A stretch of 16,495 nucleotides of DNA from a virus, in the UHGV virus genome UHGV-0357595, one strand, 5' to 3'. Below the pieces are notes generated by a model, which saw only the letters and a list, made by a program, of their open reading frames with translations, was not told where the DNA came from and searched no databases. Below, piece by piece: positions 1,078 to 9,364 of the stretch (positions are counted from its first letter, which is position 1; the number at the start of each line of letters is the position of its first letter). Position numbers and translations under genes: made by a program.

Positions 1078-1497
1078 TTACTCCGGTGGGGGATTATCTT
1101 TAAGCCTGCCTCTCAAATATTTTTCTACATACTCATCGATTTCTTTTAGCCGGACTTCAAATAGCTCAATCATTCGTTGTTGTTCTGAGCCCGGTAGCTG
1201 GTTAAACAACTCAAGAAGTTTTCGTTGGGATTCATTTAACCACAATTCAGAAGATTCCTGTTCTCCAAATAGGAGCTCAGGAGGAGATATGCCAAGTGCC
1301 TTTCCCAATACGACAGCGTCATGCACTCCAACATTTCTGCTGCCCGCCTCATAGTTACCTATACGCGATTGCGTCCATCCGCAGATTTCAGCAAGTTTTC
1401 CTTGAGATAAACCAAGCTTCTGCCTGCGCTCTTTAAGACGCATTGCAATTTTGTCATTGAGCCTACTAGCGGCAATTTTTTCGTTTTCTTTTTCCAT
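1078..1497 (-). CDS. prophage repressor, HTH XRE/cI-like, no S24 peptidase domain (RacR-like architecture)
   Basis: 139-aa ORF; helix-turn-helix signature LGLSQGKLAEICGWTQSRIGNYEAG; C-terminal part is helical with no Ser/Lys autopeptidase motif; AGGA 5 nt upstream of the ATG; divergent from a Cro-like gene. Confidence 0.8.
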   Translation of the reverse strand: MEKENEKIAASRLNDKIAMRLKERRQKLGLSQGKLAEICGWTQSRIGNYEAGSRNVGVHDAVVLGKALGISPPELLFGEQESSELWLNESQRKLLELFNQLPGSEQQRMIELFEVRLKEIDEYVEKYLRGRLKDNPPPE

Positions 1498-1593
1498 TGC
1501 ATCCTTGTATCACGAATCGTGATTTACATAAAACACAAAACAGCTTGACCATATAACACAAGGTGTGTTTAAAATTGTCATCGGAGGTTTTCA
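1498..1593. promoter_or_regulatory. divergent immunity-region promoters with palindromic operator candidates
   Basis: Inverted repeats ATCACG-AAT-CGTGAT (1509-1523) and AACACA-AGG-TGTGTT (1555-1569); rightward -35 TTGACC (1545-1550) with an AT-rich -10 near 1568-1575; leftward -35 TGACAA (complement of 1575-1580) and -10 TTATAT (complement of 1551-1556); the second palindrome sits between the two -10 elements. Confidence 0.5.
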
Positions 1594-1836
1594 ATGAACA
1601 AAATTTCAACATATCGAAAACAGCTTGGGCTGTCTCAAAGACAACTTGCTGTTCAGTTAGGGTGGATACAAAGCCGACTGGCAAATTACGAAGCAAATTT
1701 TCGTACCCCTGGACTAGAGGAGTGCAGAAAAATTGTTTCTACCCTTAATCGGCTTGGCGCTCATTGTGGACTTGACGATGTATTCCCCCCAGACGGTAAG
1801 CATAGCGAAAACAGCATAGGAGCGGTTGATTCATGA
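1594..1836 (+). CDS. Cro-like HTH XRE-family regulator (80 aa)
   Basis: ATG at 1594 with GGAGG 8 nt upstream; HTH signature LGLSQRQLAVQLGWIQSRLANYEAN; divergent from the repressor; stop overlaps the start of the next gene (ATGA at 1833-1836). Confidence 0.75.
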   Translation: MNKISTYRKQLGLSQRQLAVQLGWIQSRLANYEANFRTPGLEECRKIVSTLNRLGAHCGLDDVFPPDGKHSENSIGAVDS

Positions 1837-2255
1837 AAATCAGGCATGAGCACATCGAATCAGTGTTGTTAGCCCTGGCAGCCGAAAAAGGGCAGGCGTG
1901 GGTCGCTAACGCAATTACTGAAGAATATCTGCGCCAGGGGGGCGGCGAATTGCCCCTTGTACCAGGCAAGGACTGGAACAATCAGCAGAATATCTATCAC
2001 CGTTGGTTGAAAGGTGAAACGAAAGCGCAAAGGGAAAAAATTCAGAAACTGATCCCTGCGGTTCTGGCAATTCTTCCGCGCGAGCTGCGTCACCGACTCT
2101 GCATCTTCGATACCCTGGAACGCCGTGCATTACTGGCGGCGCAGGAAGCGTTGAGTACGGCAATTGATGCGCATGATGATGCAGTCCAGGCCGTTTACCG
2201 GAAAGCACATTTCAGCGGTGGTGGGTCGCCCGGCGATTCTGTCGTAGTGCATTGA
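1833..2255 (+). CDS. YdaT-like protein (hypothetical regulator or toxin following cro)
   Basis: 140-aa ORF translationally coupled to the Cro-like gene; size and position match the ydaS-ydaT arrangement of Rac-type prophages; family assignment is from memory only. Confidence 0.5.
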   Translation: MKIRHEHIESVLLALAAEKGQAWVANAITEEYLRQGGGELPLVPGKDWNNQQNIYHRWLKGETKAQREKIQKLIPAVLAILPRELRHRLCIFDTLERRALLAAQEALSTAIDAHDDAVQAVYRKAHFSGGGSPGDSVVVH

Positions 2256-2299
2256 TTGAAATTAATCGTGCCGGATTGTTTTGTTCGGTATCAGTTAAA

Positions 2300-2320
2300 T
2301 GTAACGCTGCGAGCGTTACA
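2300..2320. repeat. 21-bp palindrome TGTAACGCT-GCG-AGCGTTACA (copy 1, perfect arms)
   Basis: Perfect 9-bp inverted arms with a 3-bp spacer, 13 bp upstream of the initiator start codon. Confidence 0.7.
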
Positions 2321-2332
2321 AGGTGAAAACAA

Positions 2333-3121
2333 ATGGCTTCAAACTGGATAAAGCTCGAGGTTATTACGCCGGATAAGCCGGAAATATTCAGGCTTGCTGA
2401 GATTCTGAATATTGATCCAGATGCCGCATTAGGGAAGGTTATTCGCTTCTGGGCATGGGCGGATCAACAAATGATAGACGGTAATGCAGATTGTAACGCT
2501 CGCGGCGTTACAAAAAGTGCAATAGATCGCATCACTTTTATGGCTGGTTTTGCTGATGCGTTAATTCAGGTTGGATGGCTGGTCGAAAATGACGTTGGGC
2601 TTTCTCTACCTAACTTTGAACGTCATAACGGAAAAAGCTCTAAAAAACGGGCGGTTACAAACGAGCGAGTTACAAAAATACGCGAACTGAAACGAAAAGG
2701 TAACGCTGCCAGCGTTACACAAACGGATCAAAAAGCGTTACCAGAGGAAGAGGAAGAGGAAGATCTAAATACTGATCTCCCCCTAAATCCCCCTCGCCAA
2801 AAACGAGCGTCTAAAAAATTCGAGCCGGAGGCTATTGAGCTGCCCGATTGGTTGCCGGAAACACTCTGGCATGAGTGGGTCCGGTTCAGACAGGCATTGC
2901 GAAAACCGATTCGAACGGAGCAGGGCGCTAACGGGGCGATACGGGAACTGGAAAAATTCCGTCAGCAGGGTTTTACACCTGAGCAGGTGATTCGACACAG
3001 CATCGCCAATGAATACCAGGGCCTGTTCGCGCCGAAAGGTGTTCGGCCTGAGACGTTGCTCCGACAGGTTAACACCGTCTCGTTGCCGGACAGTGCGATC
3101 CCGCCAGGCTTCAGGGGGTAA
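2333..3121 (+). CDS. replication initiation / replisome-organiser protein (YdaU / O-like)
   Basis: 262-aa ORF directly upstream of a DnaC-like gene; contains the repeated palindromes in its coding sequence (as the lambda O gene contains ori); acidic EEEEEED stretch at 2744-2764. Confidence 0.65.
   Translation: MASNWIKLEVITPDKPEIFRLAEILNIDPDAALGKVIRFWAWADQQMIDGNADCNARGVTKSAIDRITFMAGFADALIQVGWLVENDVGLSLPNFERHNGKSSKKRAVTNERVTKIRELKRKGNAASVTQTDQKALPEEEEEEDLNTDLPLNPPRQKRASKKFEPEAIELPDWLPETLWHEWVRFRQALRKPIRTEQGANGAIRELEKFRQQGFTPEQVIRHSIANEYQGLFAPKGVRPETLLRQVNTVSLPDSAIPPGFRG
2492..2512. repeat. 21-bp palindrome TGTAACGCT-CGC-GGCGTTACA (copy 2)
   Basis: Same palindrome with one arm mismatch, inside the initiator coding sequence, 192 bp from copy 1. 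Confidence 0.7.
2699..2719. repeat. 21-bp palindrome GGTAACGCT-GCC-AGCGTTACA (copy 3)
   Basis: Same palindrome with one outer mismatch, inside the initiator coding sequence, 207 bp from copy 2; two extra GTTACAA half-sites lie at 2654-2660 and 2669-2675. Confidence 0.7.
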
Positions 3122-3127
3122 CAGACC

Positions 3128-3874
3128 ATGAAAAATATTGCGACAGGAGGCGTTCTGGAGCGTATCCGCAGACTGGCCCCACCACATGTAACCGCCCCAT
3201 TCAGAACGGTTGCGGAGTGGCGCGAGTGGCAACTTGCTGAAGGCCAGAAACGTAGCGAGGAGATCAACCGCCTGAATCGTCAGTTGCGGGTGGAAAAAAT
3301 TCTGAATCGCTCAGGCATCCAGCCGTTGCACCGTAAATGCTCGTTTGCGAATTACCAGGTGCAGAACGACGGCCAGCGATACGCGTTAAGCCAGGCGAAA
3401 TCCATCGCCGATGAACTGATGACCGGGTGTACAAATTTTGCGTTCAGCGGAAAACCTGGTACCGGGAAGAATCACTTAGCGGCAGCTATCGGGAATCGCC
3501 TGCTGAAAGACGGTCAGACAGTGATTGTGGTTACCGTGGCTGATGTTATGAGCGCCCTGCACGCCAGCTATGACGACGGGCAGTCAGGCGAAAAATTTTT
3601 GCGGGAACTGTGCGAAGTGGATCTGCTGGTTCTTGATGAAATTGGCATTCAGCGCGAGACGAAAAACGAGCAGGTGGTACTGCACCAGATTATTGATCGA
3701 CGGACAGCGTCGATGCGTAGCGTGGGAATGCTGACAAACCTGAACTATGAGGCCATGAAAACATTGCTCGGCGAGCGGATTATGGATCGCATGACCATGA
3801 ACGGCGGGCGATGGGTGAATTTTAACTGGGAGAGCTGGCGTCCGAATGTCGTCCAGCCAGGAATTGCGAAGTGA
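3128..3874 (+). CDS. DnaC-like helicase loader (IstB-like AAA+ ATPase)
   Basis: 248-aa ORF; Walker [16 protein letters not shown]; Walker B-like DLLVLDEIG; follows the initiator gene. Confidence 0.85.
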
Positions 3875-4673: not shown

Positions 4674-5096
4674 ATGGCAAAAGTATTTACACCAGAAGAG
4701 CGAGAAAAAATTAAAGGGCAGGTTGTTGAACTTGTACGTCTGAGCGGTCGCGAGACGTTACGGGCTCTGGAGGTTAAAACCGGTGCATCAAGGTATTACA
4801 TAAGCACTCTCGCCAGAGAACTGGTCGCCAGTGGTGATGTTTACAATTCAGGCTACGGATTATTCCCGTCTGAGCAGGCGCGTAAGGACTGGCAAAACGC
4901 CCGCAAAAAACTATCCAGGGCAAAGGTGAAAAAAACGGTTGTGGTTGATCCGGACCTTATCTGGTCATTACCAGACGGAGAAATACGCCGCTACGACAGG
5001 CGTCTGAACATAATCTGTCGCGAGTGCAGGAAGAGCGAAGTTATGCAGCGCGTGCTGGCGTTTTATCAGGGGAATTTTCAGGAGGTGGCACAGTGA
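4674..5096 (+). CDS. hypothetical protein (141 aa)
   Basis: ATG at 4674 with GGAGG 6 nt upstream; basic C-terminal half; no confident family call. Confidence 0.6.
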   Translation: MAKVFTPEEREKIKGQVVELVRLSGRETLRALEVKTGASRYYISTLARELVASGDVYNSGYGLFPSEQARKDWQNARKKLSRAKVKKTVVVDPDLIWSLPDGEIRRYDRRLNIICRECRKSEVMQRVLAFYQGNFQEVAQ

Positions 5097-5293
5097 GCGG
5101 GATTGACTACCAAGAATTGGCTGCTGCCAACGCTTTCCTGGCGGATGTGCGGGCAGGGGCGTTTAACGACCTTTGCGCGGCGTTTGTCAGGCACGCAAAA
5201 ATTGCAGGACTGGGTGATGCCGATACCGTAACGCTTAAGGAAGTGACAGAAGCATTGTTGCATTGTGCGGAACAGATTCGCGCGGCTGAATAA
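5093..5293 (+). CDS. hypothetical small protein (66 aa)
   Basis: GTG at 5093 with GGAGG (5081-5085) upstream; start overlaps the upstream stop (GTGA), suggesting translational coupling. Confidence 0.4.
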   Translation: MSGIDYQELAAANAFLADVRAGAFNDLCAAFVRHAKIAGLGDADTVTLKEVTEALLHCAEQIRAAE

Positions 5294-5566
5294 TTAAATT
5301 TAGTGTTGTAAATAAAATTTAATCCTTAACCGGAGGGATTTCTGCACCCTCAAATAATCAGGAGGCCGCCCAAAAGGGCGGAACAGATAATGCTTACGTT
5401 GAAACATTTTATCGACATACCAACATGGTTAGCCGTCATTGCTTTTGTTAAAATACACATCCACTTTTCTGTGCAATGTTTAACCACTGGTCATATCAAA
5501 TGGTATTCATGCGAACCATGATATAGAATCATGGCTTGAGAGAGTCGATGAAAGCGCAACTATGGT

Positions 5567-6145
5567 ATGAGAGACATTGATGTAAGAAAGGCTGTGCATG
5601 CCAAGATTCTGAGAGATCATCATAAAGATCCTGACACCCTAATCATTGATGAGTTTACGATGAATCTAGGGGCTAGCAGAGCTGATATAGCAGTGATCAA
5701 TGGGCTTATACATGGTTATGAGTTGAAGAGCAAGAGTGATAACTTGCTCAGATTACCAGCGCAGGTGCAACATTACTCATCAGTGATGGATAAAGTAACG
5801 TTGGTTGTCTCTGATTGCCATCTTTATGATGCTTTAAGCATAGTTCCATCATGGTGGGGGATAAAGCAAGTTACGCAAGGTGCACGGCAAGGTATCCATT
5901 TAAAAACAATTCGAACTAGCAAGTTGAATCCACAAGTGGACAAACTTTCCTTAACAATGCTTCTTTGGAAAGATGAATTGCTTTCCCTATTAAGTGATGT
6001 AGGGGAGCTACAGAATTTGAAAAATAAACCTAAACGCGTCTTATGGTCAAAACTCGCCAATAGTATGGATGTTGGCGAGCTTCGTGAAGCTGTTCGAGTT
6101 AAACTTAAAGCCCGTAAAGAGTGGCGAGTTGCTCAACAACCTTAG
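5567..6145 (+). CDS. putative PD-(D/E)xK-type nuclease-like protein (192 aa); possibly sce7726-family
   Basis: ORF in the AT-rich island; motif RADIAVINGLIHGYELK (Asp followed about 12 residues later by Glu-x-Lys) resembles a PD-(D/E)xK core; weak Shine-Dalgarno; family name is a recollection, not a search result. Confidence 0.6.
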   Translation: MRDIDVRKAVHAKILRDHHKDPDTLIIDEFTMNLGASRADIAVINGLIHGYELKSKSDNLLRLPAQVQHYSSVMDKVTLVVSDCHLYDALSIVPSWWGIKQVTQGARQGIHLKTIRTSKLNPQVDKLSLTMLLWKDELLSLLSDVGELQNLKNKPKRVLWSKLANSMDVGELREAVRVKLKARKEWRVAQQP

Positions 6146-7202
6146 TTATGTGATGGTTTTGCCCAATCCTACGCCATACCTCTGGGCTACCAAATTTATA
6201 GTTACCAGAGGGATTGGCTTTGTAGGCTTGATACTCGTTTGCATAATATTCTATGTCTCTATCTCCCGCACAGAATGTAGGCCCTGAATATTCTCGATGA
6301 GCAAGAATATCCTCACTATGTTTACCATATTGTTCATAACCAAAGCGATTAGCTACTCTTCCTCGAAATACCCAAAAGTCATTATCTCCAGAGTATCTGA
6401 CGCTGGCAGATACGCTAGGGAATCGCGTCGAAAGCCTATTAAAGTCGGGGTGCTGTACTCCATAATCACTATAAATCACATTTCTGGCAAGTTCTTTTCT
6501 ATTCATTAAACTCTGCCATAAAATCCACTCGATTCGAGGTTGAGAATATAGACCAACAGAAATATCACTGAGATCTGTAGGAAATGAACCCCCAGAAAGA
6601 ATCACTTTTCTGTATTCATTGAGGTGCGCCAGATTGTTTATCAATCCCATTGCCAACGTATATAGTTCGCCGGAATTAAGTTTATCCTCGGTTAACTCAT
6701 CTCTTAAGTCAATAATTATATCAATATTTGATAAAGGAATTCCCAGATGATTAATGTAATGCGTTATTAATTGTGGGTTAACCAGATCTAACGTGGTTAA
6801 TCTCAAGCATATTTCATTCTGCATTAATTCATCAATCGCTCTTTTATAGTTAGATGGGCGAGTTGGTGAACTGACAGGAATAACTCTTATCCCCATATCT
6901 CTAACTTGATGAACCGCATTTATTATAGGGTAATGATCTTCAGGAGAAATAAAATGCTCTTCAATTAATAATCCATCAATATAAACACCTTGCATATCTG
7001 AGCAAGATTTTGAGACTTTCTTTCCGAACTCTATAAGAGTCTCGTTATAACTCTTTAAGGCAATACCTGAATCAGGGTCAATTGGCACTGGTTCAATTTC
7101 GAGTAATGGCAAAATTTTTGATTTCTTTTCAATGGATAGCTGCGATAAAGCTGATAACTCAGAACGTTTCGCTTTCAGAATAGGAATATATGAAATTGTC
7201 AT
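6105..7202 (-). CDS. hypothetical protein (365 aa), partner of the putative nuclease; possibly beta/sce7725-family
   Basis: Long minus-strand ORF in AT-rich DNA; start ATG at 7202 with AAGGT upstream; N-terminus MTISYIPILKAKRSELSAL; convergent with the 192-aa gene and overlapping it by 41 bp at the 3' ends. Confidence 0.7.
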   Translation of the reverse strand: MTISYIPILKAKRSELSALSQLSIEKKSKILPLLEIEPVPIDPDSGIALKSYNETLIEFGKKVSKSCSDMQGVYIDGLLIEEHFISPEDHYPIINAVHQVRDMGIRVIPVSSPTRPSNYKRAIDELMQNEICLRLTTLDLVNPQLITHYINHLGIPLSNIDIIIDLRDELTEDKLNSGELYTLAMGLINNLAHLNEYRKVILSGGSFPTDLSDISVGLYSQPRIEWILWQSLMNRKELARNVIYSDYGVQHPDFNRLSTRFPSVSASVRYSGDNDFWVFRGRVANRFGYEQYGKHSEDILAHREYSGPTFCAGDRDIEYYANEYQAYKANPSGNYKFGSPEVWRRIGQNHHITKVVEQLATLYGL

Positions 7203-7321
7203 GTTAATACCTTATACAGAATCAATTAACAATTAATGGTTCTTCGGACATTGAAATTTATATCGCAAAAATTGGCAAACTCTCCTCGACTACTCACTTG
7301 TGGGTATCCTGGCGTAAAAGG

Positions 7322-7373
7322 AATGACTTGGCAATACCCGGTGTGATCATAAGTCATTGAAAATGATCATTTT
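7322..7373. promoter_or_regulatory. palindromic elements with Dam (GATC) sites upstream of the 365-aa gene
   Basis: Inverted repeat AATGACTT (7322-7329) / AAGTCATT (7351-7358) flanking TGATCAT (7344-7350); perfect 14-bp palindrome AAAATGATCATTTT (7360-7373). Confidence 0.3.
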
Positions 7374-7644
7374 TATCAGTCTTTCTTCCATGATGAATGC
7401 TAATGCCATTTGATTTGTTGAGGTGAAAACTGTTAAAAATCAAAACGATGTAATTGAAATGAACGTTCGGTAGCATTCACGCTTTAAATGTTTCTTTTGT
7501 GCTGATTGGATGAATTTTGGTCACTTATGATGAGAGATGTTGCAGGAAAAGAAGTTGGCATTGATCTATTGGATAGTTAGAATTGCTGCGGGTGCTTGAG
7601 GCTATCTGCCTCAGGCATGAACACCAAAAGGCAGATAGAGAAAA

Positions 7645-7711
7645 GCCCCAGTTAACATTACGCGTCCGGCAAGACGCTTAACATTAATCTGAGGCCAATT
7701 TCATGCTTTGC
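7645..7711 (-). ncRNA. candidate Sok-like antisense RNA of the hok locus
   Basis: Minus-strand promoter-like elements TTGCCT (complement of 7741-7746) and TAACCT (complement of 7718-7723), antisense to the hok leader; 3' end not resolved; placed by analogy with hok/sok loci. Confidence 0.3.
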
Positions 7712-7759
7712 ACATGTAGGTTAGCCTCTTACGTGCCGAAAGGCAAGGAGAAGCAGGCT

Positions 7760-7915
7760 ATGAAGCAGCAAAAGGCGATGTTAATCGCCCTGATCGTCAT
7801 CTGTTTAACCGTCATTGTGACGGCGCTGGTAACGAGGAAAGACCTCTGCGAGGTACGAATCCGAACCGGCCAGACGGAGGTCGCTGTCTTCACAGCTTAC
7901 GAACCTGAGGAGTAA
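7760..7915 (+). CDS. hok: Hok/Gef-family type I toxin (51 aa)
   Basis: Translation MKQQKAMLIALIVICLTVIVTALVTRKDLCEVRIRTGQTEVAVFTAYEPEE matches the Hok/Gef family (HokD/RelF-like as recalled); single transmembrane helix; an in-frame upstream ATG at 7703 would extend the frame to 70 codons. Confidence 0.85.
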   Translation: MKQQKAMLIALIVICLTVIVTALVTRKDLCEVRIRTGQTEVAVFTAYEPEE

Positions 7916-7984
7916 GAGACCAGGCGAGGGAGAAATCCCTCGCCACCTCTGATGAGTCAGGCATCCTCAACGCACCCGCGCTTA

Positions 7985-8005
7985 ACCCGTTTCGGCGGGT
8001 TTTTT
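7985..8005 (+). terminator. rho-independent terminator at the 3' end of the hok mRNA
   Basis: Stem ACCCG (7985-7989) / CGGGT (7996-8000) followed by TTTTT (8001-8005); an additional strong hairpin GGCGAGGGA / TCCCTCGCC lies at 7923-7944. Confidence 0.55.
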
Positions 8006-8474: not shown

Positions 8475-9074
8475 ATGGCGCATATACAACTGGTCAAACA
8501 AACCTCTTCTGGATTACTTCTCCCGGCGACGCCGGAGAGTTGCGATTTTTTGCATCAAATCAAAATAGGTGAGTGGATACACGCGGACTTTAAGCGAGTG
8601 CGTAACTACGCGTTCCACAAGCGTTTTTTCAAACTCCTGCAACTGGGATTCGATTACTGGACTCCGAACGGTGGGGCGATCACGCCTCGCGAACGAGAAC
8701 TGGTGTCCGGTTTCGTTGATTTCCTGTGCGAATCAGTAGGTCGGGAACATACGCCAGCCCTGAGTGATGCCGCAGAGCAATACCTTAACACCGTTGCGAC
8801 TTGCAGAACCCGGGATACGGCCTTACTCAAGTCCTTTGACGCTTTTCGCGAATGGGTAACCATTCAGGCCGGATTTTACACCGAACATTTTTATCCGGAC
8901 GGTAGTCGTGGGCGCAGGGCAAAATCTATCGCATTTGCGAACATGGACGAAACCGAGTTTCAGCAGGTTTATAAATCTGTACTGAATGTGCTGTGGAACT
9001 GGATCCTGTTCCGTAAATTTTCCTCTCCGGAGGAAGTCGAAAATGTGGCCGCGCAGTTACTGGAGTTTGCGTAA
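8475..9074 (+). CDS. nin-region protein (possibly DUF1367-like)
   Basis: 199-aa ORF with GGAG upstream; sits between the replication module and Q as nin-region genes do; family is a tentative recollection. Confidence 0.6.
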   Translation: MAHIQLVKQTSSGLLLPATPESCDFLHQIKIGEWIHADFKRVRNYAFHKRFFKLLQLGFDYWTPNGGAITPRERELVSGFVDFLCESVGREHTPALSDAAEQYLNTVATCRTRDTALLKSFDAFREWVTIQAGFYTEHFYPDGSRGRRAKSIAFANMDETEFQQVYKSVLNVLWNWILFRKFSSPEEVENVAAQLLEFA

Positions 9075-9364
9075 TGGTGGATTTACGTAAAGCGGCTCGG
9101 GGGCAGATGTGCACCGTCAGAATTCCTGGCTACTGCAATCACAATCCCGAAACATCTGTGCTGGCGCATTACAGGCTGGCGGGGACGTGCGGAACAGCGA
9201 CAAAACCACACGATATGCAGGCAGCGATTGCCTGTAGCTCATGCCACGATTTAATCGACGGGCGGGTAAAAACCAGCGATTACACCAAAGAAGAATTACG
9301 CCTGATGCATGCAGAAGGTGTTTTTCGCACACAAGAAATCTGGAGAAAGGAAGGTTATTTATGA
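9074..9364 (+). CDS. Cys-rich nin-region protein (YbcO / DUF1364-like)
   Basis: 96-aa ORF whose start overlaps the upstream stop (TAATG); cysteine cluster (CNHNPETS ... CGT ... CSSCHD); resembles the DLP12 YbcO family as recalled. Confidence 0.55.
   Translation: MVDLRKAARGQMCTVRIPGYCNHNPETSVLAHYRLAGTCGTATKPHDMQAAIACSSCHDLIDGRVKTSDYTKEELRLMHAEGVFRTQEIWRKEGYL

Follow-up and report, generated by a model that had tools for sequence, protein, structure and literature searches.

A probable PD-(D/E)xK nuclease of the P4 cII family and a convergent Beta gene form a likely two-gene cassette in a Rac-like prophage

Introduction

Why would a prophage carry, in an island beside a toxin-antitoxin locus, a small protein that bears the marks of a nuclease? 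This question is raised by a gene for a 192-amino-acid (aa) protein in UHGV virus genome UHGV-0357595, a 16,495-nucleotide (nt) stretch of DNA that was analysed over its whole length (the window) and that is a piece of a Rac-like lambdoid prophage of Escherichia coli. An initial annotation, made from the sequence alone, had read a PD-(D/E)xK-like catalytic motif in this protein. The PD-(D/E)xK reading is supported, while two things escaped the initial annotation, namely the known name of the protein family (sce7726 / Phage_P4_cII) and a Beta gene that converges on the nuclease gene from the opposite strand. Our preferred explanation, to which we give a probability of roughly 0.5, is that the metal-dependent nuclease and Beta form a two-gene prophage cassette that defends the lysogen, in which the nuclease would be the effector and Beta would sense or regulate. 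Two experimentally validated anti-phage systems, gop-beta-cII and PD-lambda-2, contain relatives of these genes, and their mechanism is not established; an intact PD-(D/E)xK site in the cII family, together with a conserved Beta/cII unit, provides a concrete hypothesis for the effector.

Results

The 192-aa protein is a P4 cII homologue with a predicted RecB-like active site

The gene is the sole long plus-strand open reading frame (ORF) of its region.

5567–6145, plus strand: 192-aa nuclease-family gene with an ATG start; product identical to WP_001204666.1; sce7726 / Phage_P4_cII family

The protein scores 191.1 bits against the NCBIfam model NF033832 'sce7726 family protein' (cut-off 70), with residues 1–184 placed on profile positions 1–183 of 184, and the identical protein WP_001204666.1 carries the same name, 'sce7726 family protein', in RefSeq. 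Furthermore, Pfam PF26915 'Phage_P4_cII' is precomputed on all of its close homologues, the PADLOC model 'cll' matches it at 2.4e-28, and an hhalign comparison of its family with cII of satellite phage P4 gives a probability of 98.7% over 182 columns, with every catalytic residue aligned. As judged by sequence comparison, the protein is homologous along its whole length to P4 cII and belongs to an already named family; it is not an orphan. No local Pfam model matched it at E up to 1. Searching PDB sequences with the protein itself, or with a 39-sequence profile, returned nothing meaningful, and no Pfam domains were found in nine longer family members in which domain fusions were sought.

The segment RADIAVINGLIHGYELK (residues 38–54, nt 5678–5728) contains D40, flanked by hydrophobic residues, and, 12 residues further on, E52-L-K54, in agreement with the Asp on a hydrophobic stretch and the Glu-x-Lys that had been noticed initially. 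The short motif alone is weak evidence, because the pattern D-x(8-16)-[DE]xK arises in 65% of shuffles of the protein and the pattern hDh-x(7-15)-[DE]xK in 16%. The extended pattern E..hDh..ExK..QxxxY, which was defined post hoc, arises in 0.03% of shuffles.

5651–5776, plus strand: catalytic core signature, composed of E29 (5651–5653), D40 (5684–5686), E52-x-K54 (5720–5728) and Q66-x-x-x-Y70 (5762–5776)

In an alignment of 353 homologues, composed of 268 database proteins and the genes of the fetched loci, residues E52, K54, D58, R62 and Q66 are kept in every sequence, D40 in 352, E29 in 349 (the other four have gaps) and Y70 in 343. Poor conservation of the motif residues had been set beforehand as a possible refutation of the nuclease assignment; the alignment shows them to be invariant or nearly so. 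The AlphaFold2 model of the protein, built on a 39-sequence alignment, has a predicted local distance difference test (pLDDT) score of 94.4 and a predicted template modelling (pTM) score of 0.89. In the model, helices 3–14 and 16–20 precede strands 25–32, 37–44 and 48–54, helix 63–73 and strand 76–82, giving the alpha-beta-beta-beta-alpha-beta core of the restriction-endonuclease fold, whose absence had likewise been named as a possible refutation; two further strands and a four-helix C-terminal domain follow. Specifically, E29, D40 and E52/K54 are positioned on the three consecutive strands, and Q66 and Y70 on the next helix. Model and alignment together place the protein in the PD-(D/E)xK superfamily, with the core fold present, D on strand 2 and ExK on strand 3, and divide it into an N-terminal PD-(D/E)xK nuclease domain (residues ~1–117) and a C-terminal helical domain (residues ~122–186).

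The order acidic residue, D, ExK and QxxxY is the signature of the RecB family. The 192-aa protein resembles RecB-family and Cas4 nucleases in each of these elements: strands 1, 2 and 3 bear the acidic residue, D and ExK in turn, and the next helix bears the QxxxY of Cas4 and RecB, kept across its family at the counts given above. It differs from Cas4 and AddB in that the four-cysteine iron-sulfur cluster is not possible, as there is a single cysteine among the 192 residues. The closest structure to the model belongs to the DUF1052/MmcB-like family (PF06319; structure 3dnx, SPO1766), which is related to archaeal junction resolvases, and the nearest structural relatives also include NucS and relatives of Holliday-junction resolvases. 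The likeness to the DUF1052/MmcB-like family is structural only, with no Pfam match at E up to 1 and no match in the PDB profile search; the sce7726 family has an additional C-terminal helical domain and is partnered by Beta, whereas DUF1052 is reported beside HisKA and beta-lactamase-type genes. The most likely identity of the 192-aa protein is that of a PD-(D/E)xK endonuclease that depends on metal ions, with a predicted active site formed by E29, D40, E52 and K54 and a RecB-type QxxxY helix, and we infer both nuclease activity and a DNA substrate.

The family is widespread. A profile search recovered 5449 cluster representatives when the E cut-off was 0.001 and 1279 when it was 1e-30, and a pattern scan of a one-genome-per-species collection found at least 448 genome stretches with a family member, including many non-phage chromosomal settings, across Proteobacteria, Firmicutes, Actinobacteria, Acidobacteria, Chloroflexi, Myxococcota, the candidate phyla radiation and others. 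Depositors have annotated some homologues as 'MmcB-like' or 'exonuclease', other sources use 'regulatory protein' or 'Phage regulatory protein', and PHROGs lists the nuclease and Beta alike as 'unknown function'. Our literature search found no paper analysing the 192-aa protein or the sce7726 family, the name 'sce7726' appearing only in passing in genome papers, and no role for cII is assigned in the literature searched.

The nuclease gene and a Beta gene converge and overlap at their 3' ends

The gene that follows the nuclease gene lies on the opposite strand, and the two coding regions run into each other.

6105–7202, minus strand: Beta-family gene, 365 aa, TIM-barrel fold; convergent partner of the nuclease gene
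6105–6145, both strands: overlap of the 3' coding ends of the nuclease and beta genes, 41 nt, with both ends fixed by stop codons

The Beta protein matches PF14350 at 1.3e-52; a literature search on 'PF14350' gave no matches. Its best PADLOC match is to the PD-Lambda-2_C models (2.2e-41), and the P4-specific 'beta' model matches it weakly (1.8e-4). A PDB search with the Beta profile gave nothing meaningful, and a search for hairpins near the overlap found weak ones only.

This arrangement recurs widely. In 81 of 85 nuclease-anchored loci, a set that includes seven near-identical copies from Bradyrhizobium and Afipia, a Beta gene lies immediately downstream on the opposite strand, and the 3' coding ends overlap by 11–167 nt in 78 of the 81 pairs. 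Two of the four exceptions are contig ends and two are real, namely Myxococcus phage Mx4 and a Xenorhabdus locus. Among 55 Beta-anchored viral loci, which were found with search patterns derived from Beta proteins already partnered with sce7726, a convergent overlapping nuclease gene accompanies 51 of the 52 intact or readable Beta genes. Furthermore, among 5426 complete E. coli genomes, the 93 that carry one of the two genes also carry the other. The convergent, 3'-overlapping nuclease/Beta pair is an unusual architecture conserved across many phyla and phages, and the nuclease is Beta's most constant companion, yet not an obligatory one.

In Myxococcus phage Mx4 (L004, 3992–4561), the sce7726 homologue is 35% identical and sits in a long co-directional early-type operon with no Beta nearby. 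In Gordonia phage Powerball (L003, 2725–5684), an actinophage, the nuclease gene (annotated 'exonuclease') and the Beta gene ('hypothetical') converge and overlap; they adjoin a HicA/HicB toxin-antitoxin pair and lie near the integrase, several accessory modules being clustered there.

The pair is the cargo of a variable prophage island

The two genes, with non-coding leaders on both sides, make up a low-GC island between the replication genes and hok/sok.

5294–5566, plus strand: leader 5' of the nuclease gene, 273 nt, AT-rich, non-coding; left edge of the low-GC island
7203–7589, minus strand: leader 5' of beta, 387 nt, AT-rich, non-coding, GC 34–40%, reaching sok/hok; right edge of the island

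The G+C (GC) content is 34–42% over ~5250–7500, compared with ~50% in the flanks on both sides, and the flanks are found in 4257 of the 5426 E. coli genomes, compared with 93 for the cargo. The gene had been described as an island gene from the start, and both figures bear this out. At the same position, related Rac-like phages carry other genes. A paralogous Beta/sce7726 pair in E. coli (L143, 3134–4763; also L144 and L145), with a 206-aa nuclease of 53% identity, sits at a different prophage cargo site, which has the lysis genes on one side and the Nu1 small terminase gene on the other. The variable presence, the other genes at the same site and the paralogous pair elsewhere are the behaviour of accessory or defence genes, not of core phage functions.

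The leader at 5294–5566 presumably holds the nuclease gene's own promoter; in a promoter and terminator scan of 5000–8000, sites were no more numerous than in shuffled sequence. The 25 nt upstream of the nuclease gene, GAGTCGATGAAAGCGCAACTATGGT, contain no GGAG, GAGG or AGGA, in line with the weak Shine-Dalgarno sequence that had been noted for this gene. Within the leader, just past the upstream gene, lies a GC-rich hairpin, GGCCGCCC-AAAA-GGGCGG (5356–5385), which the terminator scan did not flag and which may be a terminator insulating the island from the replication operon.

The rest of the window has the layout of a lambdoid prophage.

1078–1497, minus strand: helix-turn-helix (HTH) repressor gene of the prophage immunity region, divergent from the cro-like HTH gene
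1594–1836: cro-like HTH gene of the prophage immunity region
1833–2255: YdaT_toxin-family (YdaT-like) gene, after the cro-like HTH gene in the immunity region (1078–2255)
3128–3874: DnaC-like replication gene, followed by DUF1627 and DUF977 genes and then the island
7590–7915: hok/sok locus, a type I toxin-antitoxin system that directly adjoins the island
7590–7765: sok RNA (Rfam RF01794, 119.8 bits)
7703–7915: mok/hok ORF (Pfam HOK_GEF)
Beyond hok/sok, in the order of the window: DUF1367, YbcO, Q-like antiterminator, lysis genes and terminase
9074–9364: YbcO-family 'putative nuclease' gene in the nin-like region

Natural beta disruptions and sequence conservation point to different roles for the partners

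Two complete genomes, PEC209 and PEC240, carry IS1 in beta at two different positions and in different orientations.

L146 (PEC209), 1160–3033: beta::IS1 locus
L147 (PEC240), 1160–3031: beta::IS1 locus, an insertion independent of that in PEC209

In both genomes the nuclease gene still encodes the identical WP_001204666.1, and viral contig L119 is in the same state, with beta interrupted and the nuclease gene intact. An intact nuclease gene beside a disrupted beta indicates that the nuclease is not lethal upon Beta loss, and this weakens the initial description of it as a potentially toxic protein. The toxin gene of a type II toxin-antitoxin pair would not be expected to persist intact once its antitoxin is lost, and the persistence of the nuclease gene argues against such a pair, without amounting to proof, as that would also depend on expression levels. 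On these alleles we downgraded both the simple toxin-antitoxin and the restriction-modification-like readings. In phage Rac-SA53 (L087), the leader itself holds an IS1 element, 166 bp ahead of the nuclease gene.

The two proteins also differ in conservation: the nuclease is the more conserved in 77 of 77 pairs, with a median identity to the window proteins of 44% for the nuclease and 28% for Beta, a comparison that is partly biased, as the loci were chosen by nuclease similarity. One would expect such an asymmetry if a conserved effector were paired with a sensor that evolves fast. On the natural knock-outs and the conservation asymmetry, we favour a sensing or regulating role for Beta; the nuclease would be the effector, cutting DNA once activated.

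Discussion

A two-gene defence cassette and its alternatives

What, then, might the island be for? In our preferred explanation, the 192-aa nuclease, orthologous in kind to P4 cII, would be one half of a self-contained two-gene cassette whose other half is the TIM-barrel protein Beta. The cassette would be cargo of the variable island and would defend the lysogen against other phages through superinfection exclusion or abortive infection. The fast-evolving Beta would sense or transduce an infection signal, or control the nuclease, and the slowly evolving nuclease would be the effector that cuts DNA upon activation. In other lineages, Beta would act as a hub wired to gop (in P4) or to HigB and an HTH-peptidase (in PD-lambda-2). 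The defence or abortive-infection role, which had been suggested from the motif alone, receives indirect support from the homology to P4 cII (hhalign probability 98.7%), from the protective effect of the gop-beta-cII locus (PMC9122126) and from the low-GC, variable island beside hok/sok. We infer from these lines the defence role of the gop-less version, as well as which partner senses and which executes.

Several points weigh against this explanation. The TIM barrel of Beta may be an enzyme and the true effector. The Mx4 homologue, which has no Beta, shows that the family is not restricted to Beta pairing. Beta can work with no sce7726 partner: two PD-lambda-2-type loci (L161 and L162) carry beta without sce7726. 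The validated PD-lambda-2 clone reaches only ~396 bp past beta, so it cannot hold a whole convergent sce7726 gene. Finally, the selection of loci by nuclease similarity accounts for part of the conservation asymmetry.

A broader version of the same idea, which we hold only tentatively, would make the Beta/cII pair an old immune module of two genes, sufficient by itself and shared by many bacterial phyla and their phages, with the transcript overlap as part of its control. In such a module, the fast-evolving TIM-barrel protein would control the RecB-like PD-(D/E)xK nuclease, antisense pairing or polymerase collision at the overlap would set the product ratio, and gop-beta-cII and PD-lambda-2 would be lineage-specific elaborations to which extra effectors had been added.

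The main rival reverses the roles, with Beta as a TIM-barrel enzyme and the effector, and the PD-(D/E)xK protein as a sensor or licensing factor that, for example, recognises phage DNA ends or structures or processes a nucleic-acid signal. About 25 residues of Beta are invariant and mostly charged, as in an enzyme, among them K12, E15, D76, R115, R134, D165, R223, D246, R269 and H351; Beta works in PD-lambda-2-type loci without sce7726 and is needed for defence there (PMC9519451); and the structural relatives of the nuclease include the structure-sensing NucS and kin of Holliday-junction resolvases. Set against the natural knock-outs and the conservation asymmetry, which favour a sensing Beta, we regard the reversed assignment as a minority possibility.

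An unlikely reading, though one with several observations on its side, is that the protein is a housekeeping enzyme of DNA metabolism for prophage replication or recombination, comparable to MmcB or a junction resolvase and acting in repair or on specific structures. The closest structure is DUF1052/MmcB-like, the gene has the replication genes on one side and the nin-like region on the other, a position in which lambdoid phages place recombination nucleases, the Mx4 homologue lies in an early-type operon without Beta, and the Powerball homologue is annotated as an exonuclease. However, an enzyme of this kind fits poorly with cargo in 93 genomes when the flanks are in 4257, with a GC content foreign to the flanks, with the nearly constant coupling to Beta, with the paralogous pair at a different hotspot between lysis genes and terminase and with the many non-phage chromosomal contexts across phyla. 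In addition, the P4 region is non-essential (PMC9122126), and the window prophage has its own candidate recombination nuclease in YbcO (9074–9364), which weakens this reading further.

A plain toxin-antitoxin addiction pair, with the nuclease as toxin and Beta as antitoxin and with prophage stabilisation as the chief function, seems improbable. Beta is reported to neutralise gop toxicity in P4 (Ghisotti 1990, as cited in PMC9122126), the ribosome-binding site of the nuclease gene is weak, and the compact pair adjoins another toxin-antitoxin locus, hok/sok. However, loss of an antitoxin should select for loss of the toxin, and the beta::IS1 genomes PEC209 and PEC240 and viral contig L119 all have an intact nuclease gene.

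We give very little weight to a DNA-binding regulator that has a nuclease fold but no catalytic function: the source names 'regulatory protein' and 'Phage regulatory protein', the cII-type name of the P4 gene and the conserved basic and aromatic residues of the family's C-terminal helical domain would suit it, but inactivated nuclease folds normally lose their catalytic residues, and here these are invariant or nearly so in 353 sequences. The least probable reading is a restriction-modification-like pair in which Beta modifies host DNA and the nuclease cuts unmodified DNA, since the TIM-barrel matches of Beta do include DNA or tRNA transglycosylases but dozens of unrelated TIM barrels match it at least as well, the nuclease gene stays intact in the beta::IS1 genomes, a state in which a restriction enzyme deprived of its modifier would kill the cell, and Beta also works with non-nuclease partners.

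Comparison with known defence systems

The P4 gop-beta-cII locus gives protection from lambda and P1, gop being toxic when beta is missing (Rousset 2022, PMC9122126); the system kills cells upon expression of phage orf184 (bioRxiv 10.1101/2023.04.06.535777). In P4, gop and beta lie on one strand and cII converges on both, and gop encodes a 133-aa membrane protein with two hydrophobic N-terminal segments as judged by eye. The 192-aa protein is 28% identical to P4 cII (E 6e-17) over the nuclease and helical domains, with the catalytic E, D, ExK and Q in common, and it shares with P4 cII a Beta partner in the same tail-to-tail orientation and a place in a hotspot where a mobile element carries cargo. 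In contrast, the P4 protein has 264 aa and a C-terminal extension that the window protein lacks, the P4 beta and cII genes are separated by a 27-nt gap with an annotated terminator where the window genes overlap, the window Beta is only 23% identical to P4 beta, and the carrier is a Rac-like prophage rather than a P4 satellite. The window contains the cII homologue and an adjacent convergent beta, but no gop upstream of beta: a tblastn search of the window with P4 gop gave nothing better than E 0.3, and among the fetched loci gop was found in P4 alone.

PD-lambda-2 is composed of a HigB-like protein, an HTH-peptidase and Beta, and its Beta (PD-lambda-2C) is needed for defence, not for toxin neutralisation (PMC9519451, Vassallo 2022). 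The window Beta scores best against the PADLOC C models of this system, but its A (HigB-like) and B (HTH/Peptidase_M78) components were not found next to beta in the window, and neither the definition nor the clone of PD-lambda-2 includes a nuclease. In thirteen nuclease-anchored loci (L022, L040, L044, L046, L049, L059, L060, L075, L077, L078, L081, L083 and L084), a HigB / HTH-Peptidase_M78 / Beta operon stands together with a convergent sce7726 gene, and in one of these the PADLOC A, B and C models confirm the PD-lambda-2 operon. The sce7726 nuclease would be a fourth component beyond the published three-gene system. Anchoring on the HTH-peptidase instead gives another picture: most of these genes have no Beta, two (L161 and L162) have Beta without the nuclease, and one has both.

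With different Beta partners in the PD-lambda-2-type and P4 loci, Beta is a hub wired to differing toxic partners, and the window holds the minimal form, with only Beta and the nuclease between non-coding leaders. The family name and the gop-beta-cII kind of defence locus were already known. Relative to the literature searched, three points are new: the active site of cII-family proteins appears to be of the RecB-like PD-(D/E)xK type and intact; what is conserved as a unit is not gop-beta-cII but the convergent Beta/cII pair with its 3' overlap; and the window carries a gop-less two-gene form that current defence-system definitions do not call. This suggests that the PADLOC definitions 'gop_beta_cll' and 'PD-Lambda-2' miss the commonest form, the two-gene one; 1.7% of complete E. 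coli genomes carry it, among them many Shiga-toxin-producing lineages.
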